From: an uncultured Gammaproteobacteria bacterium
GTDB taxonomy: Bacteria; Patescibacteriota; Patescibacteriia; Magasanikbacterales; UBA922
DNA length: 64,000 nucleotides
NCBI GenBank assembly: GCA_964345045.1
Contig: CAYFPM010000002.1
Span: forward strand, 140,330-204,329
Direction: 5' to 3'
How positions within the stretch are numbered: position 1 is the stretch's first letter; every line of letters begins with the position of its first letter. Made by a program: the position numbers and the translations under genes. Below are positions 5,853 to 31,632 of this stretch, one piece after another. A model generated the notes under the pieces. The model had not been told where the DNA came from. It made no database searches and saw nothing but the letters and a program-made list of their open reading frames with translations.

Positions 5853-7421
5853 ATGAGAACTAATATGAATACTTTATTCAATAATAAAATAATAAAAGGA
5901 TTAGTCTTGCTACTAATAGTCGCTTGGTATGCTCTTCTTTTGATAAGACCAGTTGAAATAGCCAGTGGGGATCTGGGCAGACATTTAAAAAACGGCGAAA
6001 TAATTCTAGATATTATAGAAGGAGCAGACAAAAAAGCTATTTTTTCTAGTAATTTTTACTCCTATACTCATCCTGATCATCCTTTTGTAAATCATCATTG
6101 GGGTAGTGGCCTGATTTTTTATATCATCTATCAATCTTTTGGTTTTTTGGGTCTACAAACTTTTTTTATTTTGCTAAGCATAACCACCTTGGCTATTTTT
6201 TTTAGAATTTCTCAAAAAGAAAGTAATTTTTGGATAGCAGCTTCTTATCTTATATTTTTAATGCCTTTACTAGCAGAACGTCGACAAATAAGACCCGAAA
6301 CTTTTAGTTACCTATTTTTGGCTATTTATATTTTTATTTTACTAAAATACAAAAATTCTAAGCAACGTAGACTTTTGTATGCCTTGCCCCCCATTATGTT
6401 ACTTTGGGTTAATACTCATATTTTCTTTGTTTTTGGTTTTTTCTTAATTGTGGTGTTTTTACTAGAATCAATTTGGCAAAAAGAAACTGTAAACAAAAAA
6501 AACTTTTTAATAACTTTGTTTGCTGCTGGTGTGGCCAGTCTATTTAACCCCTTACGTTTACAAACTATTTTTTACCCTTTTAAAATTTTTAATAATTTGG
6601 GATTAAAAATAAAGGAGACTCTTTCTATAAAAGAAGCTGCTGGGACAGTTGTCCCAATGGATAGGATTTTTGTATTTGTTTTTAGCCTGGTTCTTTTTTA
6701 TATAATTTTGTTTATACTTCTAAAAAAGAAAAACTTTTCCAAAATCAAGCCAAGACTAATGCTTGTCCTAATCACTACGATCTTTGCCCTGCTAGCTTAT
6801 AAAATGATCCGTAATCTAACCTTGTATGCTTTATTTGTTTTGCCAATTCTTTCCTACCTTTCGTATGGATTAATCGAAACCTACAAAAACAAATTTAATA
6901 AAGAAAAAATGGCTCTCTATCTTTTTGCATTCTTTCTGCTTGTCACTATTTTTGTAAACAAAACCAGAATTCCAAATGCAATAGAAGGCCTTGGATACAA
7001 TTTGCCAGAGGGTAGCCAGGCTGCCGGGGAATTTGTTGCTGAAAATAATATAAAAGGACCCCTCTTTAACGACTTTGACAGTGGCAGCTATGTAATATAT
7101 CATCTTTACCCTAGGCTAAAACCATTTGTAGACAATCGCCCAGAGGCCTATCCTAGCCAATTTTTTAGAGATACCTATATACCACTTAGAAACGATATAA
7201 AAATGTGGAAAGAAACAGATGCCGAATACAATTTCAATGTAGTGTTACTATCTCTAAAAGATAAGTCCAGACCAAATGCTAGATTTGTTGGTTATTTTTT
7301 GGATAATAAAGATTGGACTACAATTTTTGCCAATGACAAACATATAGTTTTTGTAAAAAATAATGAAGGGAACAAAAGTATAATAGAAAAATTTTCTCTC
7401 GACAAATATGAATCTGAATAA
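5853..7421 (+). CDS. polytopic membrane protein, possibly a GT-C-type glycosyltransferase or mannosyltransferase-like protein
   Basis: 522 aa with more than 10 predicted TM helices in the N-terminal two thirds and a C-terminal soluble domain. The family is not resolved. Confidence 0.45.
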   Translation: MRTNMNTLFNNKIIKGLVLLLIVAWYALLLIRPVEIASGDLGRHLKNGEIILDIIEGADKKAIFSSNFYSYTHPDHPFVNHHWGSGLIFYIIYQSFGFLGLQTFFILLSITTLAIFFRISQKESNFWIAASYLIFLMPLLAERRQIRPETFSYLFLAIYIFILLKYKNSKQRRLLYALPPIMLLWVNTHIFFVFGFFLIVVFLLESIWQKETVNKKNFLITLFAAGVASLFNPLRLQTIFYPFKIFNNLGLKIKETLSIKEAAGTVVPMDRIFVFVFSLVLFYIILFILLKKKNFSKIKPRLMLVLITTIFALLAYKMIRNLTLYALFVLPILSYLSYGLIETYKNKFNKEKMALYLFAFFLLVTIFVNKTRIPNAIEGLGYNLPEGSQAAGEFVAENNIKGPLFNDFDSGSYVIYHLYPRLKPFVDNRPEAYPSQFFRDTYIPLRNDIKMWKETDAEYNFNVVLLSLKDKSRPNARFVGYFLDNKDWTTIFANDKHIVFVKNNEGNKSIIEKFSLDKYESE

Positions 7422-8514
7422 TAAAAAAGTGCTAATTGTATCTGTAGCTGCTGGGGCAGGGCATGTTCGAGCTGCCGAAGCTATGAAAAAACAATTAGAG
7501 TCAGACCACCCAGATTGGAATGTCTCTCACATAGATATGCTCGATTATATTAGCTTGGCTTCTAAAAAACTTTTTTTTGATTCATACAATCTAATTATTT
7601 CAGAAATCCCCAAAATGTGGGGCGTATTATACAATTCTATAGATGTTCCAAAAAGAAGAAAACAATTTGACAAAATGACCAATGTTTTCAAAAAAATTGA
7701 AAAAAATAAGTTTACAAAAGCTATAGAAAATTTTGATCCGGATTATATAATCTGTACTCATTTTACTCCCCCGGGGATAATCGGCGACAGTTATAAAAAC
7801 AAAATGGGAATAATTGTAACAGATTATTATTTACACGAACTATGGTTTTATAAACCAGATTGTGACTACTTTGTATCTACCGGCAAAATGGCCTGGAAAC
7901 TAAAAAACTACGGCGTAAACGACAAAAATATTCATATTACCACTATCCCTATTAGTTCTTGTTTTGGAGAAGAAAAGAATGTAAACAAACTAAAAGAAAA
8001 ATATAATATAGACAATAATAAAAAAAATATTTTAGTCTTGTCTGGTGGTCATGGCCTAGGCAATACTCCTGAAATAGTTAGCAATCTTTGTCTAAGCCAA
8101 GAGAATTTAAATATTTTTGCTATAGCTGGCAAAAGTGAAAAATTAAAAAGAAAATTAGAAAAAATAAAAACCCCAGAAAATATACAATTAAACCCTATTG
8201 GTTGGACAGATAGTATCGATGAATATATGAGAATATCTGATTTGATAATTACCAAACCCGGAGGGCTAACTGTAAGTGAAGTTATTTATTTGCAAAAACC
8301 AATTATTGCTATCAATCCTATCCCTGGCCAAGAAGAAAGAAATATAGAATATATGCTAGAAAAAGATTATGGCAAACAGGCTCATACAGCAGCCGATCTT
8401 TTGTACTACATCCAAAAAAATCCCACAGAGCTAGCTCCGGGGTATAATTTGATAAAAAAAGAACAGCCTACGGCTGCCCAAAAAATTTCTCAGAAATTAA
8501 TTAAAAAAATATAA
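7408..8514 (+). CDS. GT28 MGDG-synthase/UgtP-like diacylglycerol glycosyltransferase
   Basis: N-terminus VLIVSVAAGAGHVRAAEAM resembles the MGDG_synth N-terminal motif. C-terminal GT-B region with ITKPGGLTVSE. Confidence 0.6.
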   Translation: MNLNNKKVLIVSVAAGAGHVRAAEAMKKQLESDHPDWNVSHIDMLDYISLASKKLFFDSYNLIISEIPKMWGVLYNSIDVPKRRKQFDKMTNVFKKIEKNKFTKAIENFDPDYIICTHFTPPGIIGDSYKNKMGIIVTDYYLHELWFYKPDCDYFVSTGKMAWKLKNYGVNDKNIHITTIPISSCFGEEKNVNKLKEKYNIDNNKKNILVLSGGHGLGNTPEIVSNLCLSQENLNIFAIAGKSEKLKRKLEKIKTPENIQLNPIGWTDSIDEYMRISDLIITKPGGLTVSEVIYLQKPIIAINPIPGQEERNIEYMLEKDYGKQAHTAADLLYYIQKNPTELAPGYNLIKKEQPTAAQKISQKLIKKI

Positions 8515-8516: not shown

Positions 8517-9011
8517 TTACCGATTACACACGGCAGGATCACTAAAGTTACCATTGGCACAAGGGTTGTATTCTTCTGTGTCGGAGTAATGGAAAAAACC
8601 TTCTTCCGGCTCTCCTACAGATCTTCTAACCGTTCTATCTACAAATATCAATATAGAATAGGCACTAGCAGCTACCAAAACTCCAATCACAGCCGTACGC
8701 AAAGTCTTTTTGCCTTTTTCTACTTTTTGTTCGTCTCCACCAGAAGTTAAGATAAGATAACCGGCATACACAGTATAACCAATAAATAGAATTCCAATAA
8801 AACCAAGTAAGCGACGAATAATCTGGGCAGCAACCAATCTAGGATCTTCTGCTATGCCAAAATCGGCTCCTCTATTTCCAGCAAAGGCTCCGGTTTGTTG
8901 ATTCAAATCTTCGGCAAAGCTGGCCGCATTTACAAAATCCGAAGTTGCTAAAAAAAACAAACCAGCCAAAGCAAAGCTAAACAATAATATTTTTTTCTTT
9001 TTGCTAAACAT
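8517..9011 (-). CDS. pilin-like secreted protein, TrbC/VirB2-like two-helix core (paralog 1) with a short Cys-containing C-terminal tail
   Basis: Signal peptide. Core LLGFIGILFIGYTVYAGYLILTSGGDEQKVEKGKKTLRTAVIGVLVAASAYSI. Tail ends ...NPCANGNFSDPAVCNR. Confidence 0.6.
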   Translation of the reverse strand: MFSKKKKILLFSFALAGLFFLATSDFVNAASFAEDLNQQTGAFAGNRGADFGIAEDPRLVAAQIIRRLLGFIGILFIGYTVYAGYLILTSGGDEQKVEKGKKTLRTAVIGVLVAASAYSILIFVDRTVRRSVGEPEEGFFHYSDTEEYNPCANGNFSDPAVCNR

Positions 9012-9016
9012 AGTTA

Positions 9017-9460
9017 TTAGGGATTCGATCTATTTTGTTCCAAAGCTTCTCTCACGGCTTCTCTAGGATTTTGCTTTTGCAAAGAACCTTGCACCGCGCT
9101 ACTTATAAACCTAGTAATAGAGTAAGCCAAAAGAACTATAATAAGACCAATTATGGCTCCGCGTACAGTTTTGGTGGCTTTTTCTACCTTACTTTCGTCT
9201 CCACGAGAGGTAATATACCAATAGCCGGCCATAAGTACCAAAACTATAAAAAAAGTTCCTACAAAGCCAAGTAAGACTTGTACAATCTCGGCAATGATTA
9301 TCCTAGGGTCAGCCGCACCTCCAAAACCGGCTCTATTGGCTCCGGCTGTAATCTGACTACCGACTTGGCTACCCAAATCTCCTGCCATAGCTGGAGAAAA
9401 GAAAAACAAAGAAAGTGATAAAGAAAAAAACAAAACCAAAATCACTAATTTATTACGCAT
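9017..9460 (-). CDS. pilin-like secreted protein, TrbC/VirB2-like core (paralog 2)
   Basis: Signal peptide. Core LLGFVGTFFIVLVLMAGYWYITSRGDESKVEKATKTVRGAIIGLIIVLLAYSI. Confidence 0.6.
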   Translation of the reverse strand: MRNKLVILVLFFSLSLSLFFFSPAMAGDLGSQVGSQITAGANRAGFGGAADPRIIIAEIVQVLLGFVGTFFIVLVLMAGYWYITSRGDESKVEKATKTVRGAIIGLIIVLLAYSITRFISSAVQGSLQKQNPREAVREALEQNRSNP

Positions 9461-9462
9461 AC

Positions 9463-10188
9463 TTATAATCTAATCAAAGCTTGGTTATTGAAATTACAGG
9501 TCCAACCAACCCCTGGAGAATTACTCTGGCACCAAGTTCTACAACCAGAAGCGTCTTGAATATTGGTATTTGGTCTTTGGGTTCCTCCCCCAGTATTTCT
9601 CACCCATTCACAAACACCCGAAGTACTTTGCAAGATTTGACCATTAAACTCACAGTTCCAACCGGCTGCACTAACAGGATTCCCTACACACCAAGCCTGA
9701 CACTCGGCAGAGTTGGCAATTGGAGTGCTTGGGGTTTGGCTACCACTGCCTTGGGTGTTTACCCAACGACAACTACCACTACCACCAGCCGGAGAGCTAC
9801 TCCCCGTAGAACCACCACTAGCTCTATCTATTAGTCTAGGAACTACAAAAGAAGTAATGCTATAGGCTCCTACAGTAATTATAAGTCCAATTATCGCTGC
9901 TCTTATAATATTTTGAGCTTTGCTTATTTTGTCTTCTTCGCCTCTCGCAGTCATCCACATAAAACCAGCATATACCATAAGGATCATAAAGATTACCCCC
10001 ACAAAAGACAAGGCCGCTCGAACTATGTCTCCCAAAGTTTCGGCAAAACTAGTTTCTGTGGTGTTGGGGTCAAAACCAGCTTCTTTGGCTGCTTCTCTAG
10101 CCAGTCCAGTGCCCAAATCAATAGCCAAAGTGCTTTGTGGCAAAAATAATACCAAACCAAGCAAAACAAAAAGTAAAAACTTTTTCAT
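9463..10188 (-). CDS. pilin-like protein with a C-terminal tandem Cys-rich module (paralog 3)
   Basis: Core ALSFVGVIFMILMVYAGFMWMTARGEEDKISKAQNIIRAAIIGLIITVGAYSI. A C-terminal module of about 45 aa is repeated twice (CxWVxNTxG...CxxWCxxN...GWxCxFNxQ). Confidence 0.6.
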   Translation of the reverse strand: MKKFLLFVLLGLVLFLPQSTLAIDLGTGLAREAAKEAGFDPNTTETSFAETLGDIVRAALSFVGVIFMILMVYAGFMWMTARGEEDKISKAQNIIRAAIIGLIITVGAYSITSFVVPRLIDRASGGSTGSSSPAGGSGSCRWVNTQGSGSQTPSTPIANSAECQAWCVGNPVSAAGWNCEFNGQILQSTSGVCEWVRNTGGGTQRPNTNIQDASGCRTWCQSNSPGVGWTCNFNNQALIRL

Positions 10189-10321
10189 ACAAATAAATCA
10201 ATTCCCTTGCCCTGTTATTAATATTAAGGGCAAAGTATAAAATAAATATTTTTTAAACACTCATTAAATCTAATTCAATCCCTTTTCTGCGGAATCTTTA
10301 TAAATCAATGAAATCAGTGTT

Positions 10322-10360
10322 TAAAAAACCAAACCTGATTACAAGCATACACCAGGTTTA
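10322..10360 (-). terminator. intrinsic terminator after pilin paralog 4
   Basis: Minus-strand hairpin aaacctg...caggttt followed by a U-run (an A-run on the plus strand at 10323-10328). Confidence 0.55.
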
Positions 10361-10372
10361 GCCTGCCTATTA

Positions 10373-10744
10373 TTACGAACCACCTAATCTTCCAGTAACA
10401 AACACAGTGATTGCATAAGCTGATACTACTATAACCAGACCAATAATAGTACTGACTATAACTTTTTGCGCTTTTTGAACTTGTTCTTCGTTGCCACGAG
10501 CTGTCATCCAAAGATAACCTCCATAAACCATTAAGAGCAAAAATATAATACCCACCAGTGTAAGCGCTGCGTTTATAATTCTACCAGTAGCAGTTTCCAG
10601 ATCCCGAACATCGTCTACCCCGGCTCTACTACCAACATTTTCTAGTGGACTACCACCACCAAAAGCATCTTGTAGACCACCAGCCAAAGTCACACTAGGA
10701 AAAAGTAATAACGCAGTTAAAATTATTATTGAAAATTTTTTCAT
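10373..10744 (-). CDS. pilin-like secreted protein, TrbC/VirB2-like core (paralog 4)
   Basis: Start at MKKFSII. Core LTLVGIIFLLLMVYGGYLWMTARGNEEQVQKAQKVIVSTIIGLVIVVSAYAI. Confidence 0.6.
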   Translation of the reverse strand: MKKFSIIILTALLLFPSVTLAGGLQDAFGGGSPLENVGSRAGVDDVRDLETATGRIINAALTLVGIIFLLLMVYGGYLWMTARGNEEQVQKAQKVIVSTIIGLVIVVSAYAITVFVTGRLGGS

Positions 10745-10758
10745 ATAGCTTAATAATA

Positions 10759-11127
10759 TCAATTTGTAAGTCTACCGACAAATAGTGTAATAGCATAAGC
10801 CATTACTACCACAGCTGCCCCAATTATAGCAGCTATTACAGTTTTTTTACCCTTTTCTATTCTTTCTTCGCTACCTCTAGCTGTCATCCATATAAAACCA
10901 CCATAAATAGTAAGAATAAAGAAAAATAATCCTACAAGCGAAATCCCCGCACGTAGTCCATCGGCGACAATGTTTGTGACACTAGATCTTTCTACTCCAG
11001 CTCTCCCAGCTACGTTTTCGGTAAAACCAGTGGCATTATTTATTTTATAACCAGCCAAAACAATATTTGGCAGAAGCCAAAAAGCCAAGACTAAAGTATA
11101 AAACAAATGATTAACAATCTTGGGCAT
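10759..11127 (-). CDS. pilin-like secreted protein (paralog 5)
   Basis: Core ISLVGLFFFILTIYGGFIWMTARGSEERIEKGKKTVIAAIIGAAVVVMAYAI. Confidence 0.6.
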   Translation of the reverse strand: MPKIVNHLFYTLVLAFWLLPNIVLAGYKINNATGFTENVAGRAGVERSSVTNIVADGLRAGISLVGLFFFILTIYGGFIWMTARGSEERIEKGKKTVIAAIIGAAVVVMAYAITLFVGRLTN

Positions 11128-11129
11128 AA

Positions 11130-11693
11130 TTAATTACAATTGGAAGCCGATATATTTGGGTTCACAGTAGCTGTTAAGCCAGGACCTCCCTGACACAAAC
11201 TGCTAGCATTACTTGGAAAATAAGGACCTCTTACACATTGAACTGCTCCACCTGTAGCTCCAGTGGTACAAACCACACAACAACCAGCGTCTACCGCCGT
11301 AGTCCCAGCTCCAGGTGCTGGGGTTGTTGGTTGCGTAGCTGTACCTACACTTTGGAATACAAATCTGGTAATAGCATAAGAAGCAATCACCAAAATAAGA
11401 CCAATAATGGCAGCTGTCACCGTACTAAGTGCTTTTTTACTTATTTCTTCATTGCCTCTGGCTAGCATCCAACTAATACCCGCGTAGATCATAAGTATAA
11501 AAAACAGAACCCCGATTAGAGTAAGGCCAGCGCCAATTACATTTCCTACAATATCGGCTAGACTCCCCCTAGCTGTGGTATCTAGCCCAGATTCCTCTGC
11601 AGTTTGTTCCAATCCATAACCAGCCAAGGCCAAAGACGGAAAAGCTACAGCCAAACCAGCCAAGAAACCAAACAAATAATTTTTCTTTTTCAT
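11130..11693 (-). CDS. pilin-like protein with a Cys-rich C-terminal domain (paralog 6)
   Basis: Core LTLIGVLFFILMIYAGISWMLARGNEEISKKALSTVTAAIIGLILVIASYAI. Tail ...GCCVVCTTGATGGAVQCVRGPYFPSNASSLCQGG...SNCN. Confidence 0.6.
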   Translation of the reverse strand: MKKKNYLFGFLAGLAVAFPSLALAGYGLEQTAEESGLDTTARGSLADIVGNVIGAGLTLIGVLFFILMIYAGISWMLARGNEEISKKALSTVTAAIIGLILVIASYAITRFVFQSVGTATQPTTPAPGAGTTAVDAGCCVVCTTGATGGAVQCVRGPYFPSNASSLCQGGPGLTATVNPNISASNCN

Positions 11694-11704
11694 ATAATTA
11701 AAAA

Positions 11705-12319
11705 TTAAGAACCAGCGGCAATACAACAAACATTATTACGTCCTCCGGGACAAACACCTGTTTCTATAGTGGCCGGGTCACACGAATTTCTTTCCTGACA
11801 TCTATAATTAGGGTTAGTGTCACCAAAGGTAATTGTACAAAATGTTTGACATCTACCAGCAACACAAGCAGTCTGTGGACCACAGTCCGTATCGGCTGTA
11901 CAACTAGCCCCAGGAGCTCCAGCAGTAGCACCAGGTGCCCCACCAGAAGTAGTCCCTCCCTCGACTGTACCAAATACAAACCGAGTAATAGCATAAGCAG
12001 ACAATACTATAATAAGACCAACAATCGCAGAAACAATAATTTTTAGCCCTTTCATAGCTTGTTCATTGTTGCCATGAGAAGTCATCCAAGTAACTCCACC
12101 GTATATAGTAAGAATAAAAAATAGTACTCCTACAAAAGACAATGCTCCACCCAAAAATCTACCGGTAGCCGTAGGGATATCCCCAAATTTTTGCAAACCA
12201 GATCTACTAGAAACTAGTTCTAATCCATACTCATCGGCAGCCATAGTTGGAGGCAAAAACAAAAACATCCCTAGAAAAAAAGCCGACAAAAATGAAACTA
12301 TAAATATTTTTTTAGGCAT
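11705..12319 (-). CDS. pilin-like protein with a Cys-rich C-terminal domain (paralog 7)
   Basis: Core LSFVGVLFFILTIYGGVTWMTSHGNNEQAMKGLKIIVSAIVGLIIVLSAYAI. Tail has 10 or more Cys (CTADTDCGPQTACVAGRCQTFC...). Confidence 0.6.
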   Translation of the reverse strand: MPKKIFIVSFLSAFFLGMFLFLPPTMAADEYGLELVSSRSGLQKFGDIPTATGRFLGGALSFVGVLFFILTIYGGVTWMTSHGNNEQAMKGLKIIVSAIVGLIIVLSAYAITRFVFGTVEGGTTSGGAPGATAGAPGASCTADTDCGPQTACVAGRCQTFCTITFGDTNPNYRCQERNSCDPATIETGVCPGGRNNVCCIAAGS

Positions 12320-12329
12320 GGATCAAAAA

Positions 12330-12716
12330 TTATAGGGTATAACCAGTAGTTGCTCTATAAATATTGCTAAGAACAAAACTGGTTACTGCATAAGCGCTTA
12401 AAATTATAATAAGACCAATTACTGCTGCCCACAAAGTTTTTTTAGCTTTGGTGATACTTTCTTCGTTTCCTCCAGCAGTCATCCACATAAAACCGGCATA
12501 CAATATAACCCCCAAAGAGATGACTCCCAACAAACTAAGAAAAACTTGAATTATTGTGCCAACCGAATTTCTCAAATCACGATCTCCCAAACCACTAAAT
12601 TTGCCATATTCTGTGCCTAGCAAATCTGCTCCGGCCAAAACGGGATTTATTTGTAAAATAAAAAAACCGAAAGCTACAAAAGTTAAAAAAACTATGATTT
12701 GCTTGGTATTTTTCAT
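12330..12716 (-). CDS. pilin-like secreted protein (paralog 8)
   Basis: Start at MKNTKQIIVFL. Core FLSLLGVISLGVILYAGFMWMTAGGNEESITKAKKTLWAAVIGLIIILSAYAV. Confidence 0.55.
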   Translation of the reverse strand: MKNTKQIIVFLTFVAFGFFILQINPVLAGADLLGTEYGKFSGLGDRDLRNSVGTIIQVFLSLLGVISLGVILYAGFMWMTAGGNEESITKAKKTLWAAVIGLIIILSAYAVTSFVLSNIYRATTGYTL

Positions 12717-12824
12717 AAAGATTGATTTTGGTGCAAAAGAAACAAAAATTATCTCTTTAGCACCACCATCAAAATACAAAGGGCAGAGATCTCCACGTGG
12801 GGTTAGACCCCTGCCCAATGTAAG

Positions 12825-13244
12825 TTAGAATGTTACGGATTGTCCGGCACCTGCTGTAGTACCAGTGGCAATAGCCAACTGATTTAGCACGAAACGTGCA
12901 ATAGCAAAGGCACTCAAGATAATAGCCAAACCAATGATTCCAGCAAAGATTCTCTTGCGAGCTTCGGCAACTTTTTCTTCGTTACCACCAGCTGTCATCC
13001 ATTGAAAACCACCAGCCAAGATAATTACCAATGCAACGATACCCAAAAGGCTAAGTGCTACACGGATAATTTGACCGATAGTGTCACGGATATCTTGGTT
13101 TCCAAGTCCACTAGTTGTACCGTATTCTAGACCGAATACAGTAGCACCAGCGTGAGCAGAAGGAACTAGAAATACACCCATAAGAAGCACGGCAACAGCA
13201 ACCCAAGCGAGACGGTATTTGGCGACTGTGTTTATCCAATACAT
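12825..13244 (-). CDS. short pilin-like protein with a strong Shine-Dalgarno site, candidate major subunit (paralog 9)
   Basis: 139 aa. Core ALSLLGIVALVIILAGGFQWMTAGGNEEKVAEARKRIFAGIIGLAIILSAFAI. Upstream GGAGGTGAGACT-ATG is the strongest RBS in the cluster. Confidence 0.6.
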   Translation of the reverse strand: MYWINTVAKYRLAWVAVAVLLMGVFLVPSAHAGATVFGLEYGTTSGLGNQDIRDTIGQIIRVALSLLGIVALVIILAGGFQWMTAGGNEEKVAEARKRIFAGIIGLAIILSAFAIARFVLNQLAIATGTTAGAGQSVTF

Positions 13245-13345
13245 AGTCTCACCTCCCTTCCGTTATAAATGTTTTTATTCATATAGCAATAGTATACGTG
13301 AATAAGCCTAGTTTTACAAAATAGATGTGGACAGTGATATAGGGT

Positions 13346-13416
13346 TTAGGCAACAGGCATTAGTAACTAGAAAAACACTATTGCCTATTCCCTATTCCCT
13401 ATTGCCTGTTGCCTAA
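13346..13416. repeat. intergenic palindromic element ttaggcaacaggcat ... attgcctgttgcctaa (family member b)
   Basis: 15-nt inverted repeat. The centre contains tactattgcc and three cctattcc direct repeats. Confidence 0.55.
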
Positions 13417-14210
13417 CTACCAGTAAGCCCACGGATAACTGTATTCAAAATAGCATAGGCCGAAAATATAACAGCCAACCCGATTACCGCATAAAGCATG
13501 GTATTGGTTCCTTTTTTTACTCTTTCTGGATTTCCTGCCGAAGTAAGCCACATTACTCCCCCAGCAAAAAAGACTAACAAAGTAATAGATCCAATCACAG
13601 CCATAGCATTTCTAATCACATCGGCTACAATTACTCGCAAATCTGTTTTTTCTGGATCACTCCCCAAAGGATTTTTTAAACAAAAAACTCCCGGATCATC
13701 ACATCTGTCTTTGGTTGTCCCAGCTCCACCGGCACTCTCGGTTCCTTCTGCCAGAGTACAACCTAGTGAAAAATTAACAGATTGCCCGGCAGAACCAACG
13801 GAAACAGTCTGCGATATGCTAGATGTTTCACAGGTGTTAGCATCGAGACTTACAGAAGCAGCTACATTTGGGTTAGCCATAATAGCAGCCGGAGCGCCGG
13901 CTTGTTGGACTTGGCTACACCCAGCATCCTTGGCAGCAGCAAACGCCGAGGCAATAGTCTGATTTAGATCCAAACTAGATCCCAAAGCAGTGTTGTTGGT
14001 AAAGGCAGCATCATTACAAGCTGGAGTAGTGCTTTTTATACTAGTAACACAACGACAGACCTCGGCTGCCTGGGCTGGGTTTGGTGACAGAAGACTGGAA
14101 AAAAATATAGCCCCCAAAACAAATACAAATAAATTTATCTGTTTTATTGCCACCCTTTGGGTGATCAGCCGAAGGCTGGCTTTATTACTTTTTTGCTTTT
14201 TTGTTTTCAT
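13413..14210 (-). CDS. secreted Cys-containing protein with a C-terminal TrbC/VirB2-like pilin core (paralog 10, permuted domain order)
   Basis: Signal peptide, variable ectodomain, then VIRNAMAVIGSITLLVFFAGGVMWLTSAGNPERVKKGTNTMLYAVIGLAVIFSAYAI at the C-terminus. Confidence 0.55.
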   Translation of the reverse strand: MKTKKQKSNKASLRLITQRVAIKQINLFVFVLGAIFFSSLLSPNPAQAAEVCRCVTSIKSTTPACNDAAFTNNTALGSSLDLNQTIASAFAAAKDAGCSQVQQAGAPAAIMANPNVAASVSLDANTCETSSISQTVSVGSAGQSVNFSLGCTLAEGTESAGGAGTTKDRCDDPGVFCLKNPLGSDPEKTDLRVIVADVIRNAMAVIGSITLLVFFAGGVMWLTSAGNPERVKKGTNTMLYAVIGLAVIFSAYAILNTVIRGLTGS

Positions 14211-14219
14211 ACAATTAAC

Positions 14220-15071
14220 CTAAAATCTAAAGACTTCCTCTACACCCAAACTGTCTAATAAGAAATTAACTAATAGATAGGCACTTAGCGAAATCGTTAC
14301 CCCTATTATAGCAGCCACTAGAATTTGTTGCCCTTGTTTAAATTTTTCTGGGTTGCCAAAAGCAGTTACCATTGTAACACCACCATAAACAAACATAACA
14401 AAAGCCACCACTCCAAGTAAACTAAACACTCTGGCTGAATAATTTAAAACCAAAATAAGCAAATCATCTACATCACGACAAGTTCCACTAATAGCACAAG
14501 CCGGCAAAAGACTTCCATCTTCGGCTGTATAACCAGCACTAAGACTTGATTCCAATATGGTTATACAAACATTATCACTCCAACCACAAGCCGAGGATCT
14601 TTCACAAGTAGTAGAATCTCTAATATCTCTACAAATATTGCCATCTGCCAAAGAATAACAAGCATTGTTTACCCAAAAACAACTGCCTTGGTTGCCCCCA
14701 CTCTCACACTGTGATCTGTCTAGCTCCGGGCACTTTACAATAGTTTCTACAAATTTGTCTCTACATCTAATATGCCCTAGACAATCTATTTCTCTTTCTC
14801 TTATCAAATCACAAGTTTCAAAACCTTCTCTTCTGGATCTTATACAATTCTTTTTTACTTCTGTAGTTTTGCAAGGACTGGTTTGCTTTATACTACAACT
14901 GTTAACTCTAAATTCTGTATCATGTCCTCTTTTTATCTCTTCTATACAACACTGTGCCGCACTAGCACTATCTACCTGCAAAAAATAAGAAAAAAATAAA
15001 ACAAAAACAAATATGCCAAATCTGTTAAAACGTTTTAATGATTTCATGCTTTCATGATTTAATGATTTCAT
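14220..15071 (-). CDS. secreted Cys-rich protein with a C-terminal pilin core (paralog 11)
   Basis: About 20 Cys in the ectodomain. C-terminus VFSLLGVVAFVMFVYGGVTMVTAFGNPEKFKQGQQILVAAIIGVTISLSAYLLVNFLLD. Confidence 0.55.
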   Translation of the reverse strand: MKSLNHESMKSLKRFNRFGIFVFVLFFSYFLQVDSASAAQCCIEEIKRGHDTEFRVNSCSIKQTSPCKTTEVKKNCIRSRREGFETCDLIREREIDCLGHIRCRDKFVETIVKCPELDRSQCESGGNQGSCFWVNNACYSLADGNICRDIRDSTTCERSSACGWSDNVCITILESSLSAGYTAEDGSLLPACAISGTCRDVDDLLILVLNYSARVFSLLGVVAFVMFVYGGVTMVTAFGNPEKFKQGQQILVAAIIGVTISLSAYLLVNFLLDSLGVEEVFRF

Positions 15072-15083
15072 GTTTTAATATTT

Positions 15084-16196
15084 TTAAAATGGTCTAAAAA
15101 AATCTATTACACCAAAAGCGTCTAACAAGAAATTGACCAACAAGTAAGCGCTAAAAACTATTACCAAACCAACTACCGAAGCAACCAAGACATTAACCCC
15201 TTTTTTAAATTTTTCTGGATTACCAAAAGATGTAATCATAGTGATACCGCCTACCAAAAAACTAATAAAGGCAAGTAAACCAGCAAAACCAAACGCCCAA
15301 GTAGCATAACCAAGTTGCTGCTGCAAAATATCGTTCAAACTATCGCAAGTACCATCGTGACCACAAGGAGGAAAAGCTCCTGGTCTACTAAAATCTATAT
15401 TGCCCGACAAACCAGATTGGAGCAAGGTGTTGCATTTGCCAGTATCTTCATTCCACTTGCAAACTTTACTGCCAGCTCCACCATCACAAAGATCTTTGCT
15501 TCTCAATTTGAAACAGAGATCATTATTTTGTCTAGATTCACACTTGTTTTCAAAAACAAAACAAGAAGCCAAAGGACAGCTAGCAGCACTATGATCTAGG
15601 CAATTGATGGTTCCGCTTATCAAAACTTCATCTGAAAAACCTATAAAATATAGATATCTACCTCCATTTACCGCCGGGGTAGTGTATCTCACCCTAGAAT
15701 TACAACTTTGATTTGGAACTGAAACTGTTTTTTGTAATTTGTAAGAAACATTATCCAAAGTTTGTTTGTAAGCAAATCCAGCCACGTTATTTCGCCACCA
15801 GCCGGCAGTTTGAAAAACACCAGCCGAGCAGTAAGTAATTTCTTCGTTTACTAACCATTTCCCAGCACTATTAAATTCTATCCCCGTAGCCGTATTTAAT
15901 TCTTGCAATGCTCCAATAGTTTTTAGTTGATCATAACTAACGGTTTGGTCGTTTTGATCTACCAAAACACAAAAACTAAAATTAGGAATTGGTTCAAAAT
16001 TTGGATTACCGTTGTCATTGTTAGCTGCTACAAATACTGCATATCTTTTGCCACTGGGAGGAGTTGGGCAGTTAACATTGTAATCCGATTGAGCCAAGCT
16101 AGGAGAAGGAAATAAAAAGAAAATAAAAATCAAAAAAACCAGCTTGCTAAAATATTTTCTTATTTTTTGTTTTTTTAAATTTTTTGTTTTTAGCAT
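15084..16196 (-). CDS. secreted Cys-rich protein with a C-terminal pilin core (paralog 12)
   Basis: C-terminus FGFAGLLAFISFLVGGITMITSFGNPEKFKKGVNVLVASVVGLVIVFSAYLLVNFLLDAFG closely resembles paralog 11. Confidence 0.55.
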   Translation of the reverse strand: MLKTKNLKKQKIRKYFSKLVFLIFIFFLFPSPSLAQSDYNVNCPTPPSGKRYAVFVAANNDNGNPNFEPIPNFSFCVLVDQNDQTVSYDQLKTIGALQELNTATGIEFNSAGKWLVNEEITYCSAGVFQTAGWWRNNVAGFAYKQTLDNVSYKLQKTVSVPNQSCNSRVRYTTPAVNGGRYLYFIGFSDEVLISGTINCLDHSAASCPLASCFVFENKCESRQNNDLCFKLRSKDLCDGGAGSKVCKWNEDTGKCNTLLQSGLSGNIDFSRPGAFPPCGHDGTCDSLNDILQQQLGYATWAFGFAGLLAFISFLVGGITMITSFGNPEKFKKGVNVLVASVVGLVIVFSAYLLVNFLLDAFGVIDFFRPF

Positions 16197-16246
16197 CTAA
16201 ACTAATAAAAATTTTAAACCAAATTTTACCAAACTGACTTTTTGAA

Positions 16247-16310
16247 ATGACACTTTACTCTTGAAACACGACCCAAAACAAAAAGCGTCAAGTTATAAGC
16301 GTCATGTGTC
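16247..16310. repeat. 64-nt intergenic repeat, copy 1 (atgacact..cttgaaacacgacccaa..cgtcaagttataagcgtcatg)
   Basis: Near-identical second copy at 19232-19290. Both lie upstream of minus-strand gene starts. Confidence 0.5.
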
Positions 16311-16355
16311 ATATTTTTCTAGTTGCTACAGCATATTGTCTATCCTCTTCCTAAT

Positions 16356-17732
16356 CTAATATGTTTGTTGTACTTTTTGTTGCGTTTGGATTAGCAATCT
16401 ACTGTCTCTTTCAAAAGGTCTTTCCCCTTCACCATACGGTTGCAAATAATCACCCAACAAATCTACAAAAGCTTGTTTGGCAGCTTCGTAGTCACGCCCT
16501 TTGTACCAATTTTTGGCAGTCAAAACTTGAGAAGCAAATGGCTCGAGTAACGGGTCTCCCTGCTGTTCGGCAACTTGCGCCCGTAGTGGGCTAGGCTGCA
16601 AGGTAGCATCCAAATATCTTTTTACATTTTCCGGACTAGAGATATAACGTACAAAATCCCAGGCTTCATTTGGATTTTTGGTTCTTTTTACAACAGACTC
16701 TACCCAATAATTGGCTACATTCCCAGAGAACTGAGGATTTAATTGTGGGATTGAAACTACTGAAAAATCTAGCTGTGGAGCTTGGGCTTGTATCCTAGCT
16801 CTGTCGTGAGCAAAACCTACATAAAATACTGCTTTACCTCTGGCAAATTCTTCTAGGGCATTACCAAAATTTTCGTTCCAAGCATATACATCTTTGTTTG
16901 GTTTGGCAAAATCACTATAAAATTGTAATGATTGCAAAGCTGGATGATTTTCATTGGCTCTATTTAAACCTAGAGCAAAAGTTACAAAATTTTCATCGGT
17001 AACTTCTACTCCATTTTGCAGCATTAGCATCATTAGAATATCGGCAGCGTTGTCTATGTTGTTTCCAGTACCAAAGCTAATACCAGACTGCAAGATATTG
17101 CCAGAGTTATCATATCTGGTAGCTTTTTTTACAGCTTCGCTTAATTCTGTCCAACTCTCTGGAGGTAGAGCAATACCAGCTTTGTCGAGGAGTTCTGTAT
17201 TGTAATAGAGTGCCAAAGTATCCATGGCCAGTGGCAAACCATATATTTCATTCTCCAAAATCACATCTTCGGCTACAGTGCTCACATAATTTCTACGAAC
17301 AGTACTTTGGGTTGGTAGCAAATTTTGTTCTGTTTCTACAATTATCTCTGGTTGATACTTGCCTTTTACAAAAACTCTCGAAACAGTTACTCCCCTTGGC
17401 ATAGGCATTAATCTGTTTTGATATTTTTTTAACCAACGAGAATGCATCGATACCAAATCCGGAGCCACATCATCGGCCAAAGCGTTCACAAAAAGATTAT
17501 CAAATTCTTCGTAACGAACCTGACGAATATTTATGTTTACATAAGATCTTATTTCTTTGTATTCTTTGGCAAATGTACGAAGCGTTTCTACATCATCAAA
17601 AACTGTCCAATAGTTGATAGTTACCGGCTGTATAGCAGCTCTTTCTTCTTGGGTCAATCCCTTGCAACCAAAACCAATCAACAAAAAAATCAAGAAAAAA
17701 ACACTTAGTTTCCCAAAAATTTTAAAATTCAT
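16356..17732 (-). CDS. extracellular solute-binding lipoprotein (ABC transporter SBP family 1-like)
   Basis: Lipobox LLIGFGC after the MNFKIFGKL signal. About 450-aa periplasmic-binding-fold-like sequence. No permease gene is adjacent. Confidence 0.55.
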   Translation of the reverse strand: MNFKIFGKLSVFFLIFLLIGFGCKGLTQEERAAIQPVTINYWTVFDDVETLRTFAKEYKEIRSYVNINIRQVRYEEFDNLFVNALADDVAPDLVSMHSRWLKKYQNRLMPMPRGVTVSRVFVKGKYQPEIIVETEQNLLPTQSTVRRNYVSTVAEDVILENEIYGLPLAMDTLALYYNTELLDKAGIALPPESWTELSEAVKKATRYDNSGNILQSGISFGTGNNIDNAADILMMLMLQNGVEVTDENFVTFALGLNRANENHPALQSLQFYSDFAKPNKDVYAWNENFGNALEEFARGKAVFYVGFAHDRARIQAQAPQLDFSVVSIPQLNPQFSGNVANYWVESVVKRTKNPNEAWDFVRYISSPENVKRYLDATLQPSPLRAQVAEQQGDPLLEPFASQVLTAKNWYKGRDYEAAKQAFVDLLGDYLQPYGEGERPFERDSRLLIQTQQKVQQTY

Positions 17733-17740
17733 AGCAAGGT

Positions 17741-17800
17741 ATTTAGAAAATAGGCAACAGGCAGGAGGCAATAGTATTTTTTTCAGTTTTACTATTGCCT
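17741..17800. repeat. intergenic palindromic element ggcaggaggcaatagta ... tactattgcctcctgcc (family member c)
   Basis: 17-nt perfect inverted repeat around a T-run. Bidirectional terminator-like. Confidence 0.6.
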
Positions 17801-17822
17801 CCTGCCTAACCCCTACATCCTA

Positions 17823-18272
17823 TTATCCCACCGCCTGAAATAAGAAAGAAACTATGGCGTAACTAGCCAAAATTACAACCAAACCAAGACTAGACCAGAC
17901 TAGCGTTTTGGTAGCCAGAGCTGTTCGCTCGCTATTGCCCCGAGAAGTCATCCACATTATGCCGCCGGCTACAAACATTACCAGAGATACAGAACCTATA
18001 ATCCCCATGGCAATTCTAATAAGTCTACCAATCAACACTTGTGGAGAAGTCGTGCCAAGCCTATTTAAATCTTTTACAAGATCTTTTGTACTAGTACTTA
18101 ACAATTCGGATCCGGTTTGATCTGGAGGCACAACCGGTTCTACTTCTCCTGGAACTCCGGCATTTGTTACACTAGGCAAACCAAAGAAAACAAAAAAAGA
18201 CAAAAAAATTGCCAATAGGATTACAAAAGCTTTGTTTATTTTTTTGTGTGGCGAGTGACAAGCTACCGCCAT
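17823..18272 (-). CDS. pilin-like secreted protein, TrbC/VirB2-like core (paralog 13)
   Basis: Core IRIAMGIIGSVSLVMFVAGGIMWMTSRGNSERTALATKTLVWSSLGLVVILASYAI. Confidence 0.55.
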   Translation of the reverse strand: MAVACHSPHKKINKAFVILLAIFLSFFVFFGLPSVTNAGVPGEVEPVVPPDQTGSELLSTSTKDLVKDLNRLGTTSPQVLIGRLIRIAMGIIGSVSLVMFVAGGIMWMTSRGNSERTALATKTLVWSSLGLVVILASYAIVSFLFQAVG

Positions 18273-18287: not shown

Positions 18288-19139
18288 CTAAAGAAGATTT
18301 TCTTTTTCGGCAAAATGAATAGCTGTTTTTAACAAAGCTATTTTGTTGCCAGTATCAAAATATTCTCCATCGTATTCATAAGCAAGAAAAGGTTTTTTCT
18401 TGGCCAAATCATTGGCAGCGTCGGCTACCCAGATTTCTCCATCTCTTCCTTTACCTTGTTTTTCCAGGCTCTTCCAAATATCTTTGGTAAACACATAACG
18501 CATGCCCCCAACAATAAGTCCATGAGGAGAAACTTTTTTTAGACTTGGCTTTTCTATAAATTTATCAACCTTAAAAACTCTTTTTTCTTTGGTCTCGCTT
18601 GCATAAACATTACCATATTTGGTCATGGCTTGTCGATCGGAAATTCTTTGTACTCCAATTATAGAAGCTTGTTTTTTGTTGAATATTTTTAAAAGTTGTT
18701 TTATTGCCGGAACCTTGGCATCGATTATGCTGTCTCCATCGGAAAAAGCAAATGGTTCATCTCCTACAAATTCTTTGGCACAGAGCAAAGCATGACCATT
18801 GCCTTTTGGAGCTGGTTGTCTGGTATAAAAAAATCTTACTTTTTTACGCAAGTCTATAAGAGGTTGAATTCTATCTAGTTTGCCTTTTTTTTCCAGCATG
18901 TGCTCCAAGGCATTGTCACGATCAAAGTGATCTTCGATTGCTCTTTTGTTGGCACTGGTTACAAACATAATATCTGTAATACCACTTTCGGCCATTTCTT
19001 CTACTATGTACTGTACTACTGGTTTGTCTAGTACTGGTAACATTTCTTTGGGCATGGCTTTGGTAGCTGGCAAAAATCTAGTACCCAATCCTCCCACGGT
19101 AATTACACCTTTTGTCACTTTTTGATTTTTTTGTGGCAT
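18288..19139 (-). CDS. galU: UTP--glucose-1-phosphate uridylyltransferase
   Basis: N-terminus KGVITVGGLGTRFLPATKAMPKEMLPVLDKPVVQYIVEE matches the GalU nucleotidyltransferase signature. Confidence 0.8.
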   Translation of the reverse strand: MPQKNQKVTKGVITVGGLGTRFLPATKAMPKEMLPVLDKPVVQYIVEEMAESGITDIMFVTSANKRAIEDHFDRDNALEHMLEKKGKLDRIQPLIDLRKKVRFFYTRQPAPKGNGHALLCAKEFVGDEPFAFSDGDSIIDAKVPAIKQLLKIFNKKQASIIGVQRISDRQAMTKYGNVYASETKEKRVFKVDKFIEKPSLKKVSPHGLIVGGMRYVFTKDIWKSLEKQGKGRDGEIWVADAANDLAKKKPFLAYEYDGEYFDTGNKIALLKTAIHFAEKENLL

Positions 19140-19294: not shown

Positions 19295-20707
19295 CTATTC
19301 AAGCTCTTCCCAACTAATTAGTTCATAAGTATTGCCAACCGGGAAACCTGGTGGTGGCAAATAACGCAAATTACCATCGTAAATATACAAAGTATCTATA
19401 AAACCAGAGATAACATGCCCCCAACCATTTACCCATTTCATACCACCGGGCAAATAATCTATTTGTGAGCCATAAACAGTTAGGCTGGTTCGGGTTTGAC
19501 CACTATAAAAAGGTCGATGAATGGCTCCAAACTGAGAAAGCATGGCCGCTTCAATAGTCATTTGATCTGGAACTTCGTAAGGAATAATAATATCTCCCTG
19601 GGTAAAAAGCCCGGTCACATCGTCGTCGTTCCTTTGTGCGTAGGTTAGATTACCGGTTACAAAAATATTTTTATAAGGTTGTTGTACTGGAATTTCTCCA
19701 GCAGCCAGACTCAATCGTCCATCTACATTTCCTTCTACCCAGACATCATCTTCTACAAAAATAGCTCCATTGGCTGGTATAGGGTTGCCACTACTTACCA
19801 GCGTTTCATTGCCAATGTCATAACAATAGATATCACCATCCCAATACCAACCTACCCAAAATCTATACCTCCATCTACCACTACCATAATAACAATCTCT
19901 ACTGGTAACTCTGTATAAATCATAGGTACTACCATTGAATACAAAATGCCAACCTTCTTGACCAGAAGAAGTAAGCAAAACACCGGCATCAACCGCCATG
20001 GTACGCAGAGCCGATAGATCTGCTGTTACCCCAAAAAAATCTACACTTGGTACTGGAAATTCCCAAAAGGCTCGGGTCTCGGCATTGGCTCCTCCCCAAA
20101 CACCGTTCCTCCATTGACCAGGTTGGTACTCATAACTATCTTTGGCGCTTCTTACCCAAGAAGTAGCCGTACCATCGAACTTAATTCCTCCGTTGGAATG
20201 GGTTTGTCCGTTTACAGTAGAGGTAAAACTAAAAGACATATTGGAATTGGATACAAAAGCATAATCAGTCAGAGCCGGGAATCCCATCCTAACTTGAATG
20301 GTACGCTTCTCGTCTGGTTTGCCCACTGTCCAACCGGTAGAGCTAACCATTACCACGGTAGTGCCGGACAAAGGTGGTTGAATTTGCAAAGAAAAATAAC
20401 CAACCGTATCACCATCTTTGTCTAGATATGGGTGAACGTATGGCCCAGGTTGGCCAGTACCGTCCTGGTAATCTGTAGGGGCATGAGCTAGATGCCAACG
20501 ATAATAATTTATACCAGACTCAGCAATATGAAAGGCTTGGTCTCTTTTGTAAATTCTGTTGGAAGCTCTGTTTTCTAATATGGCATAAGAAGCCAAACCA
20601 GCCACAATCATAGTAAAAGCAGCCGATCCAAAAATAAGCACAAATATCATTACAGAACCTTTTTTATCATTTTTTAACTTTGTGAATTGTTTAAAAAAAT
20701 TTTTCAT
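19295..20707 (-). CDS. type IV pilus minor-pilin/PilX-like protein
   Basis: N-terminal hydrophobic segment after the basic stretch KKGSVMIFVLIFGSAAFTMIVAGLASYAILENR, followed by a large periplasmic domain. First gene downstream of two prepilin-type genes. Confidence 0.45.
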   Translation of the reverse strand: MKNFFKQFTKLKNDKKGSVMIFVLIFGSAAFTMIVAGLASYAILENRASNRIYKRDQAFHIAESGINYYRWHLAHAPTDYQDGTGQPGPYVHPYLDKDGDTVGYFSLQIQPPLSGTTVVMVSSTGWTVGKPDEKRTIQVRMGFPALTDYAFVSNSNMSFSFTSTVNGQTHSNGGIKFDGTATSWVRSAKDSYEYQPGQWRNGVWGGANAETRAFWEFPVPSVDFFGVTADLSALRTMAVDAGVLLTSSGQEGWHFVFNGSTYDLYRVTSRDCYYGSGRWRYRFWVGWYWDGDIYCYDIGNETLVSSGNPIPANGAIFVEDDVWVEGNVDGRLSLAAGEIPVQQPYKNIFVTGNLTYAQRNDDDVTGLFTQGDIIIPYEVPDQMTIEAAMLSQFGAIHRPFYSGQTRTSLTVYGSQIDYLPGGMKWVNGWGHVISGFIDTLYIYDGNLRYLPPPGFPVGNTYELISWEELE

Positions 20708-20743
20708 ACAATAAATTAATAAACCGTGAACAACCCCAAACAC

Positions 20744-20775
20744 TACTCCCTGTTGCCTCCTGCCTACCCCCTCCC
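20744..20775. repeat. half-copy of the ggcaggaggca palindromic element (family member d)
   Basis: Contains tgttgcctcctgcctaccccctcc. The tgcctaccccct tail also occurs at 36487. Confidence 0.4.
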
Positions 20776-20781
20776 AACTAT

Positions 20782-21405
20782 CTAATTCGTTTTTAAATTT
20801 CTAATATGAGCCACAGACTCCAAAGAAAGAGTTGTGGAATTACTAGCTGTGACTTTTTCAAAATCCAAATTAACTCTAACTACATGCACCATAGTGCTAG
20901 AAGCTGTGTCGGCTACAAAAGGTAGTGGCGTCCCGACTCCATTGTAACTTTCGTCATAATAAGTAAAAACATCGGTTCCATTATCATCGTTAATTACATT
21001 TGTAGCTAGTAGTCTACTGGTTTCGTTTCCCAAATCATAGGTCAAGGGATCTCCACTTGGCTTTACCACTCCTTTGTAAAAAATATTGTTGTTTTGATCC
21101 AAATAAAATCTGATTCTTTCTCTTAGAGAATCTTGATCATCGTTGGCATAAAAAATAAACTCGTATCTTTTGGCAGAAAAAACAGGGTAAGCCCCAGTGC
21201 TGGACTCTTCGGCACGACGAGCTACGTTTACAAATTCACTTAGAGCTCTTCGGCCATCACTTTGCAAACTTAGTTTGTCCCATAGCCTAGCATTATTTCT
21301 TTGACCATAAATAATAAGAGAAGCTGCTCCAATTGTAATTACCATAATGATAGCCATAGCCACCATTATCTCTAGCAAAGAAAATCCTTTGTTATCTTTG
21401 AACAT
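20782..21405 (-). CDS. type IV pilin/pseudopilin (prepilin-type N-terminus)
   Basis: N-terminus MFKDNKGFSLLEIMVAMAIIMVI has the class III signal (G|FSLLE with E at +5). Confidence 0.65.
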   Translation of the reverse strand: MFKDNKGFSLLEIMVAMAIIMVITIGAASLIIYGQRNNARLWDKLSLQSDGRRALSEFVNVARRAEESSTGAYPVFSAKRYEFIFYANDDQDSLRERIRFYLDQNNNIFYKGVVKPSGDPLTYDLGNETSRLLATNVINDDNGTDVFTYYDESYNGVGTPLPFVADTASSTMVHVVRVNLDFEKVTASNSTTLSLESVAHIRNLKTN

Positions 21406-21409
21406 AAAA

Positions 21410-23278: not shown

Positions 23279-23307
23279 TTGACAAAAAGTTAATTATAGA
23301 GTAAGAT
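23279..23307 (+). promoter_or_regulatory. sigma70-like promoter TTGACA-17-TAAGAT for Zn-ribbon gene A
   Basis: TTGACA at 23279-23284, a 17-nt spacer and TAAGAT at 23302-23307. Confidence 0.45.
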
Positions 23308-23326
23308 CTTACATCGATCTTTTTTT

Positions 23327-23394
23327 CACTATTGGGCACTATCTTTATCAAACTTTGGTAACGATTGTGCCCAATAGCGGATTAGGCAACCGCA
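23327..23394 (+). promoter_or_regulatory. conserved leader element A (dyad TTATCAAACTTTGGTAA plus gtgcccaa hairpin)
   Basis: About 62 of 66 nt are identical to the leader at 24836-24893. It lies between the promoter and the ATG. The dyad is at 23345-23361. An inverted repeat attgggcac/gtgcccaat flanks it. Confidence 0.45.
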
Positions 23395-23411
23395 ATTTTT
23401 AAGGAGACAGG

Positions 23412-31631: not shown

Positions 31632-31632
31632 C

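Follow-up and report, generated by a model that had tools for sequence, protein, structure and literature searches.

The locus analyzed here is an array of 13 genes for pilin-like proteins, all of them on the minus strand, at positions 8517-18272 of a 64-kb stretch of contig CAYFPM010000002.1 (assembly GCA_964345045.1; this whole stretch is referred to as the window). An initial annotation of the window had reported thirteen minus-strand open reading frames (ORFs) coding for TrbC/VirB2-like pilins, and all of them were recovered at the same coordinates, co-oriented and numbered here from #1 (8517-9011) up to #13 (17823-18272). The pilin identity was confirmed with the Pfam hidden Markov models (HMMs): PF18895 (T4SS_pilin, for type IV secretion system or T4SS), which has a gathering cut-off of 26.6 bits, matches 13 of the 13 products, 12 of them above the cut-off (27.6-40.9 bits), and the only one below it, encoded by the ORF at 11130-11729 (24.9 bits), still aligns with the other cores. 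By profile comparison, the cores thus belong to the T4SS pilin family PF18895. An artefactual or chance origin of the ORFs was ruled out by the presence of a single Pfam family in all 13 and by their synteny in 79 genomes.

All 13 proteins contain an N-terminal hydrophobic signal sequence with an AxA-like site, followed by two more predicted hydrophobic helices, and their alignment gives YGGxxWMTAxGNEExxxKAxKT as the consensus of the loop, so that the shared signal peptide and the two-helix hairpin with a conserved loop described previously are seen in every member by hydropathy and alignment. The two-helix cores are free of cysteine in all 13. Their pairwise identity averages 36% (range 23-55%) and is highest between neighbouring genes, as expected from tandem duplication; over the full length, the other members are 22-46% identical to #9. 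The description as one thirteen-gene array holds for the number of paralogues but not for their contiguity, since 12 pilin genes are contiguous and #13 is set apart from them by a gene of the SBP_bac_1/8 type (16356-17732), coding for a solute-binding protein (SBP). Most of the proposed ORF extents also hold, although gene calls and alignment place the start codons of #4, #6 and #8 later than the longest ORF, at 10744, 11693 and 12716.

The locus begins at its 5' end with #13 (17823-18272), a short lone member of 149 aa that precedes the SBP gene and has a signal peptide and two helices (PF18895, 40.9 bits). It is followed by three members with an N-terminal ectodomain and a C-terminal core: #12 (15084-16196, 370 aa), with an ectodomain of about 250 aa that contains 14 Cys and with the PF18895 match at residues 297-357; #11 (14220-15071, 283 aa), with 18 Cys and the match at residues 215-271; and #10 (13413-14210, 265 aa), with 8 Cys and the match at residues 199-257. 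Next come #9 (12825-13244), the putative major subunit, of 139 aa and without cysteine (40.2 bits), and the short #8 (12330-12716; 128 aa from the ATG at 12716; 31.5 bits). C-terminal tails are found in #7 (11705-12319; 204 aa, 10 Cys; 28.3 bits) and in #6 (11130-11693; 187 aa, 6 Cys), the member with the sub-cut-off score of 24.9 bits. After two short members, #5 (10759-11127; 122 aa; 32.0 bits) and #4 (10373-10744; 123 aa; 40.9 bits), #3 (9463-10188; 241 aa; 27.6 bits) carries a C-terminal tail made of two repeats of about 53 aa with four Cys each. The array ends with the short #2 (9017-9460; 147 aa; 33.5 bits) and with #1 (8517-9011; 164 aa; 31.5 bits), which has a short C-terminal tail with 2 Cys.

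With respect to other pilin models, PF04956 (TrbC) gives sub-threshold matches (E=4e-4 to 0.1), and an hhalign comparison of the core profile with VirB2 from Agrobacterium tumefaciens is collinear but weak (E=0.0019, probability 14%), with a GxxWM motif in common. NCBIfam NF045849 (Mbov_0395 family pilin-like conjugal transfer protein, from Mycoplasma integrative and conjugative elements, ICEs) has a cut-off of 40 bits that was not reached, the scores being 37.0 for #9, 31.5 for #3 and 19.8 for #12. The AlphaFold2 (AF2) model of #9 is a hairpin (helices 52-84 and 89-126) with predicted local distance difference test (pLDDT) values of 81-89. The family is very large, as 78,479 cluster representatives match the core profile at E<=1e-3. 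Its top matches contain 2-17 VirB2-like hairpins in tandem within a single polypeptide, without internal signal peptides, such as one of 552 aa with 6 cores and another of 1775 aa with 17 cores; these covalently concatenated proteins bear on whether the T4SS_pilin family always forms filaments.

Cysteine-rich extensions and gene order

The numbers of cysteines in the mature proteins, from #1 to #13, are 2, 0, 8, 0, 0, 6, 10, 0, 0, 8, 18, 14 and 0; every count is even and every cysteine lies in an extension. Disulfide-type ectodomains, either N- or C-terminal, are therefore present on six members and a short tail with two cysteines on a seventh (#1), in agreement with the Cys-rich modules noticed earlier on several members (2-18 Cys in seven of 13). 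In #10, #11 and #12, the signal peptide is separated by 150-250 aa from the core, with which the protein ends, and the positions of the PF18895 matches corroborate the permuted order that had been proposed for 13413-16196. In #3, #6 and #7, 60-120 aa lie C-terminal to the core, and #1 has a short tail only. A membrane-proximal Cys module directly before the core is common to #11, #12 and their few homologues, and among 5.8e9 proteins no more than 2 are full-length homologues of #12.

The internal duplication reported for 9463-10188 (#3) is real, with 22 of 53 residues identical and all 4 Cys in register (z=12.7 versus shuffles), but its unit is of about 53 aa and not of 45 aa. A homologue search with this tail alone retrieved nothing, not even the parent protein, and is for that reason a weak negative. 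The tails encoded at 11130-12319 had been called knottin-like, a label that is not sustained, as the matches in Pfam are sub-threshold ones of the #7 tail to Dickkopf_N, conotoxin and DPY.

Relatives of the array were sought in one genome per species. At least 594 stretches encode relatives of the core, and the best 79 loci were analyzed by applying an HMM built from the 13 cores to all their ORFs, which yielded 730 pilin ORFs. Nearly all of these loci belong to metagenome-assembled genomes of Candidatus Magasanikbacteria, the closest being 84% identical in the core and none identical. The arrays typically contain 9-15 pilin genes (mode 9-10, maximum 15), which lie on one strand in 79/79 loci. 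When positions are counted from the orthologue of #9, which is always short (median 143 aa), an N-terminal extension is found in 70-85% of the members at -4 to -2 and a C-terminal one in 56-64% of those at +2 and +3. Gene order is fixed: the short pilin is flanked by the N-extended members on its upstream side and by the C-extended ones on its downstream side. The Patescibacterial setting is consistent, since DUF5667 and the type IV pilus (T4P) content of the window fit genomes of the candidate phyla radiation (CPR).

Cys-rich extensions are found on 42% of the members in the related loci, 121 of the 730 ORFs being N-extended (mean 12 Cys) and 189 C-extended (mean 7.5 Cys). The number of cysteines is even in 188 of the 189 C-terminal tails, and 95% of the cores contain none. 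The cores are orthologous across genomes and the extensions are not alignable: 316 extensions form 233 BLAST clusters at E=1e-5, of which 196 are singletons, and all the ectodomains of the window pilins are singletons save that of #12. The hypervariability attributed to the ectodomains is thus upheld between species, but the sampled population is invariant: in three other runs of the same project, the contigs are 99.95-100% identical to the window, so that hypervariability at the population level is not measurable. The window belongs to ENA contig k127_70378 (128 kb) from project PRJEB17505, and an NCBI contig of 306,756 bp encodes these proteins as well.

Gene #9 and its expression signals

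Shine-Dalgarno (SD) strength was calculated as the duplex energy with the 16S tail, and downstream structure as the minimum free energy (MFE) of the first 90 nt that follow the stop codon. The SD of #9, GGGAGGTGA (13249-13257, minus strand), forms a duplex of -12.9 kcal/mol, versus 0 to -9.5 in the other 12 genes, and is the only strong one in the array. A promoter-like site, TTGTAA-17-TATACT (13291-13319, minus strand), identified by a consensus scan alone, lies ahead of it within the 168-nt spacer upstream of #9. The initial annotation had already singled out 12825-13244 for the strongest SD and as a possible major subunit, and this pattern holds across the 79 related loci: the median SD duplex is -12.3 kcal/mol for the #9 orthologue versus -2.5 for the other members (p=7e-35), the median MFE after the stop codon is -34.3 versus -14.0 kcal/mol (p=4e-28), and the median gap to the next pilin gene is 121 nt after the #9 orthologue versus 12 nt after the others. 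No other member is as well conserved as #9, for which 77 loci contain a reciprocal-best orthologue, at a median identity of 58%. Because of its unique strong SD and its structured downstream region, #9 fits a major subunit, and judging from these signals it appears to be set up for far higher expression than the other members, in an arrangement conserved across the clade.

Strong hairpins follow #13, #10, #9 and #1, and a weaker terminator-like one follows #4. The one after #13 (17744-17822, minus strand; -46.2 kcal/mol, z -8.05) is a near-perfect hairpin with a 19-bp core and a U-rich tract, typed as a terminator, whereas the long stable hairpin between #10 and #9 (13330-13412, minus strand; -34.9 kcal/mol, z -6.3) could be a terminator or an RNA-processing element. 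Directly after #9 there are two hairpins (12722-12822, minus strand; -49.5 kcal/mol, z -7.4), the first with a G+C-rich stem followed by UUUGUAUUUU, which may act as terminator or attenuator. An intrinsic terminator with an 8-bp stem followed by T7 (8461-8479, minus strand), found by terminator scan and folding, closes the array. Terminators between the genes, as initially annotated, therefore exist at these places, but most gene junctions span only 2-12 nt; this spacing rules out 13 individually terminated genes, and the individually regulated expression deduced from them gives way to about 4-5 tightly packed transcription units for the 13 genes. The most likely units, the SBP gene included, are [#13], [SBP], [#12-#11-#10], [#9], [#8 to #4] and [#3 to #1], and there may be read-through between them.

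The hairpins after #10 and #13 have in common a 12-mer, GCCTGTTGCCTA (13347-13358, 13404-13415 and 17751-17762), that occurs nowhere else in the window. At 10205-10240 (minus strand), just upstream of the start of #3, a 9-bp hairpin (CUUUGCCCU...AGGGCAAGG) overlaps a weak SD-like sequence, GGGCAAGGGAA, and could occlude the ribosome-binding site of this gene.

A filament model, its rivals and the genomic surroundings

The array is, on balance, probably a chromosomal VirB2-like (T4SS_pilin) pilin operon of a Candidatus Magasanikbacteria cell, which would supply a T4SS-built filament made mainly of #9, with the modular members varying its binding surface. Sec-dependent export and signal-peptide cleavage would leave both termini outside and the charged loop in the cytoplasm, and a T4SS encoded elsewhere would then pull the subunits from the membrane and polymerise them into a tube composed mainly of #9. 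Solved structures of conjugative pili have the N- and C-termini on the exterior and the loop towards the lumen (bioRxiv 10.64898/2025.12.18.695078). Because both termini are on the outer face, N- and C-terminal fusions would be topologically equivalent for display, and either would show its Cys-rich module on the outside of the filament or at its tip. As minor or alternative subunits, the modular members would provide changeable binding surfaces for attachment to host bacteria, by analogy with the 'modular pilin' strategy of type IV pili, transferred here to a pilin of T4SS type. A wider proposal, which we regard as possible rather than probable, is that the array represents the first natural case of 'modular T4SS pilins', in which a filament of #9 with rapidly replaced disulfide-rich modules at either terminus sets the host range of an episymbiotic CPR cell; the embedded sugar-binding lipoprotein would hint at the capture of host-derived carbohydrates.

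Several results weigh against a pilus. No VirB4, VirB6, VirB3 or type IV coupling protein (T4CP) gene was found in the 64-kb window or in the 10 kb past its start, nor any recurrent Walker-A ATPase within 10 kb of the arrays in 78/79 related loci, the exception being a single-pilin locus with a T4CP-like gene nearby. The conserved neighbours are T4P minor-pilin genes, galU, a glycolipid-type glycosyltransferase and the SBP, rather than a T4SS. The core profile showed no significant similarity to PrgF of pCF10 by hhalign, its only matches to PDB sequences were spurious (designed 'Pizza' repeat proteins, over a 20-residue motif), and a tblastn search of 72,556 plasmids with #9 gave no match. The AF2 model of #12, based on 7 sequences, has a mean pLDDT of 56.9; values are near 75 in the core and in the proximal Cys module, and the ectodomain is of low confidence, with no fold assignable to its distal part (pLDDT below 50). 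The best Foldseek match of this model, the conjugation pilus of Aeropyrum pernix (8dfu), would favour a pilin but is non-significant (E=1.5), and fold searches fail to separate a pilin from any other helical hairpin. In addition, a VirB2-type tube would, by our own estimate, be crowded if every subunit carried an ectodomain of 170-270 aa, and to our knowledge no filament of VirB2 type has been seen in any Patescibacterium. Since no VirB4, VirB6 or VirD4 gene is nearby and the fold searches are uninformative, filament assembly is something that we infer; the lack of VirB4 linkage in this lineage means either that assembly occurs in trans or that it is doubtful whether these 'pilins' form pili.

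A T4SS is nevertheless likely to be present in this genome, because VirB4 is found in 2,417 of 3,035 Patescibacteria assemblies (80%) and VirB2-like genes lie away from virB4 in about 40% of the VirB4-positive ones (PMC12102498). Across Magasanikbacteria, there is a T4CP-like protein of about 850 aa (DUF8128 + TrwB_AAD_bind + TraG-D_C), 73-83% identical, whose gene stands alone beside dnaX, corA and cysS, with no T4SS cluster around; in GCA_017991415.1 it shares a contig with the array, at a distance of about 320 kb.

The same proteins could instead be membrane-anchored, with the hairpin as an anchor and the paralogues presenting Cys-rich ectodomains (or nothing) at the cell surface, with neither polymerisation nor a T4SS. 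This would account for the absence of T4SS genes near the array here and in 78/79 relatives, it would accommodate large ectodomains more easily than a tight tube, and the tandem-hairpin polypeptides of the family (6-17 hairpins) are easily pictured as integral membrane proteins; fold searches, moreover, do not distinguish a pilin from other helical hairpins. We consider it rather unlikely, because an ectodomain is small or absent in six of the 13 members and #9, the dominant and best-conserved product and the one with the strongest expression signals, has nothing to display; moreover, the family is defined by its association with T4SSs (Pfam PF18895, NCBIfam NF045849), and the array of Saccharibacteria lies within a T4SS cluster and is essential. 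The hairpins might also build a short channel or stalk, that is, a VirB2-like conduit through the cell wall standing on VirB6, as proposed for PrgF, which the paralogues with ectodomains would cap or decorate at the host interface. Patescibacterial T4SSs derive from the monoderm MPF_FATA class, PrgF, which conjugation requires, has been modelled as a pilus-like assembly that stands on VirB6, and the nearest NCBIfam model comes from Mycoplasma ICEs. Such a conduit is nonetheless distinctly improbable, given that no similarity between the core profile and PrgF could be detected and that the extreme expression signals of #9 suggest a bulk structural polymer; it also shares the other weaknesses of the filament, chiefly that no T4SS is seen nearby.

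The adjoining T4P genes offer one more explanation, in which the array would be an accessory part of that system, working with its pseudopilin and PilB/C/M/N genes. T4P genes flank the array at 19295-23197 (minus strand) and 28543-33269 (plus strand) and code for N_methyl pseudopilins, PilB, PilC, PilM and PilN. The minor-pilin genes at 19295-23197 are directly upstream of the array and syntenic in 25-33 of the 79 loci (a count limited by the 10-kb flanks), and PilB, PilC, PilM and PilN are 10-15 kb from it. In genomes of roughly 1 Mb, however, adjacency is weak evidence, the N_methyl or class III signal motif is found in 0/13 pilins, which have Sec-type AxA signal peptides instead, and the hairpin topology is unlike that of type IV pilins, all of which makes this explanation very improbable. 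One of the T4P pseudopilins is itself a modular pilin of 595 aa with CarboxypepD_reg/SpaA-like domains.

The gene that interrupts the array (16356-17732, minus strand) codes for a carbohydrate-type solute-binding lipoprotein of 458 aa (Pfam SBP_bac_8, 9e-25; SBP_bac_1, 1e-23), with weak GanS/MalE-type NCBIfam matches and matches to sugar SBPs in the PDB. A homologue is present inside or beside the array in 64/79 related loci; next to the SBP gene, neither an ABC permease gene nor an ATPase gene was observed within the window. The array is bracketed by a diglucosyl-diacylglycerol-synthase-like glycosyltransferase (7408-8514, plus strand) and by GalU (18288-19139, minus strand), syntenic in 30 and 58 of the 79 loci, respectively, and a link to glycolipid synthesis or to pilin glycosylation is conceivable. 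Farther away, a G+C-rich island at 23300-25300 (0.47 versus about 0.38) contains two paralogous Cys-containing ORFs without Pfam match (23412-23801 and 24832-25242, both on the plus strand) and is possibly foreign DNA. A SAM-I/IV riboswitch (51487-51613, plus strand; 45.6 bits, gathering 41.1) is located upstream of an ORF with no Pfam match (51717-52649). dnaA lies just beyond window position 64000, and rpmH and rnpA at 61.7-62.4 kb; these genes put the origin of replication some 46-55 kb away from the array.

Patescibacteria account for a large part of bacterial diversity, and they live mostly attached to other microbes. If displayed on a filament, the species-specific Cys-rich domains described here would be prime candidates for determinants of host range, and the conserved layout of major, N-extended and C-extended members would give concrete targets for study.

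Comparison with known systems

VirB2-like arrays have already been described in Patescibacteria (441 arrays of 2-11 genes in 383 assemblies; Quinonero-Coronel et al. 2025, PMC12102498), where a role in host adaptation was also proposed. In Southlakia epibionticum ML1, a 6-gene VirB2-like array is essential (Wang et al. 2023, PMC10633639; PMC12857230), and a T4SS with such an array is the only Patescibacterial system of this kind shown to be essential for growth. The array of the window resembles the published ones in the PF18895 family, in its tandem, co-oriented and divergent paralogues, in the one non-pilin gene interposed, in its location on a Patescibacterial chromosome and in sequence identity (mean 36%, 23-55% in the cores here; mean 25%, maximum 54% in PMC12102498). 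It differs in the number of genes (13 here and 9-15 in the relatives, versus 2-11), in not being beside virB4 and in its lineage, as the published arrays are most abundant in Microgenomatia and Saccharimonadia and this one belongs to Magasanikbacteria. The array as such is therefore already published, and what the present analysis adds is the modular domain fusions and the fixed layout. An incomplete search of the literature found no mention of domain fusions of VirB2-like pilins, of their disulfide signature and extreme turnover, of a fixed N-extended/major/C-extended order, of a distinguished major-pilin gene, of an embedded SBP or of Magasanikbacteria arrays of up to 15 genes. Such fusions would have escaped a recent screen for VirB2-like proteins of Gram-positive bacteria, which was restricted to lengths of 50-150 aa (bioRxiv 10.64898/2025.12.18.695078).

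Canonical pilins, such as VirB2 (Agrobacterium), TrbC (RP4) and TraA (F), share with the array members a signal peptide, two hydrophobic helices, a short charged loop and termini outside the tube, together with the GxxWM motif at the end of helix 1 and the collinear hhalign match to VirB2. They differ in that the similarity is only sub-threshold, the loop is about 8 residues longer here, no VirB operon is linked and the organism is presumed to be monoderm. We know of no canonical T4SS pilin that carries a natural globular ectodomain. PrgF and the Mbov_0395 family of Mycoplasma ICEs are likewise small two-helix proteins of monoderm T4SSs, and NF045849 comes near its cut-off on #9, but these proteins are single-copy, lack ectodomains and are encoded on mobile elements, and PrgF has no significant profile similarity to the core. 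The VirB2 paralogues of Bartonella and Anaplasma, according to the passage of PMC12102498 that cites them, are also several divergent tandem copies thought to vary the surface or the interaction with the host; there, variation takes place within the small pilin, whereas here whole disulfide-rich domains are grafted onto a conserved core and the host is presumably a bacterium and not a eukaryotic cell.

The modular type IV pilins, exemplified by PilB/PilC of Streptococcus sanguinis (Raynaud et al. 2021, PMC8179133), are alike in combining a small polymerising module with a grafted functional module, and in having one major pilin and several modular minor ones. Fold and assembly machinery are unrelated, and the T4P module is always C-terminal, whereas in the array it is found at either end. 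As PF07963 (N_methyl, IPR012902) has no match in any of the 13 pilins, although it is found in the neighbouring genes at 20782-23197, the likeness is functional only. If the filament model is true, natural domain grafts would be tolerated by T4SS-type pilins at both termini, a capacity so far known only for type IV pilins.

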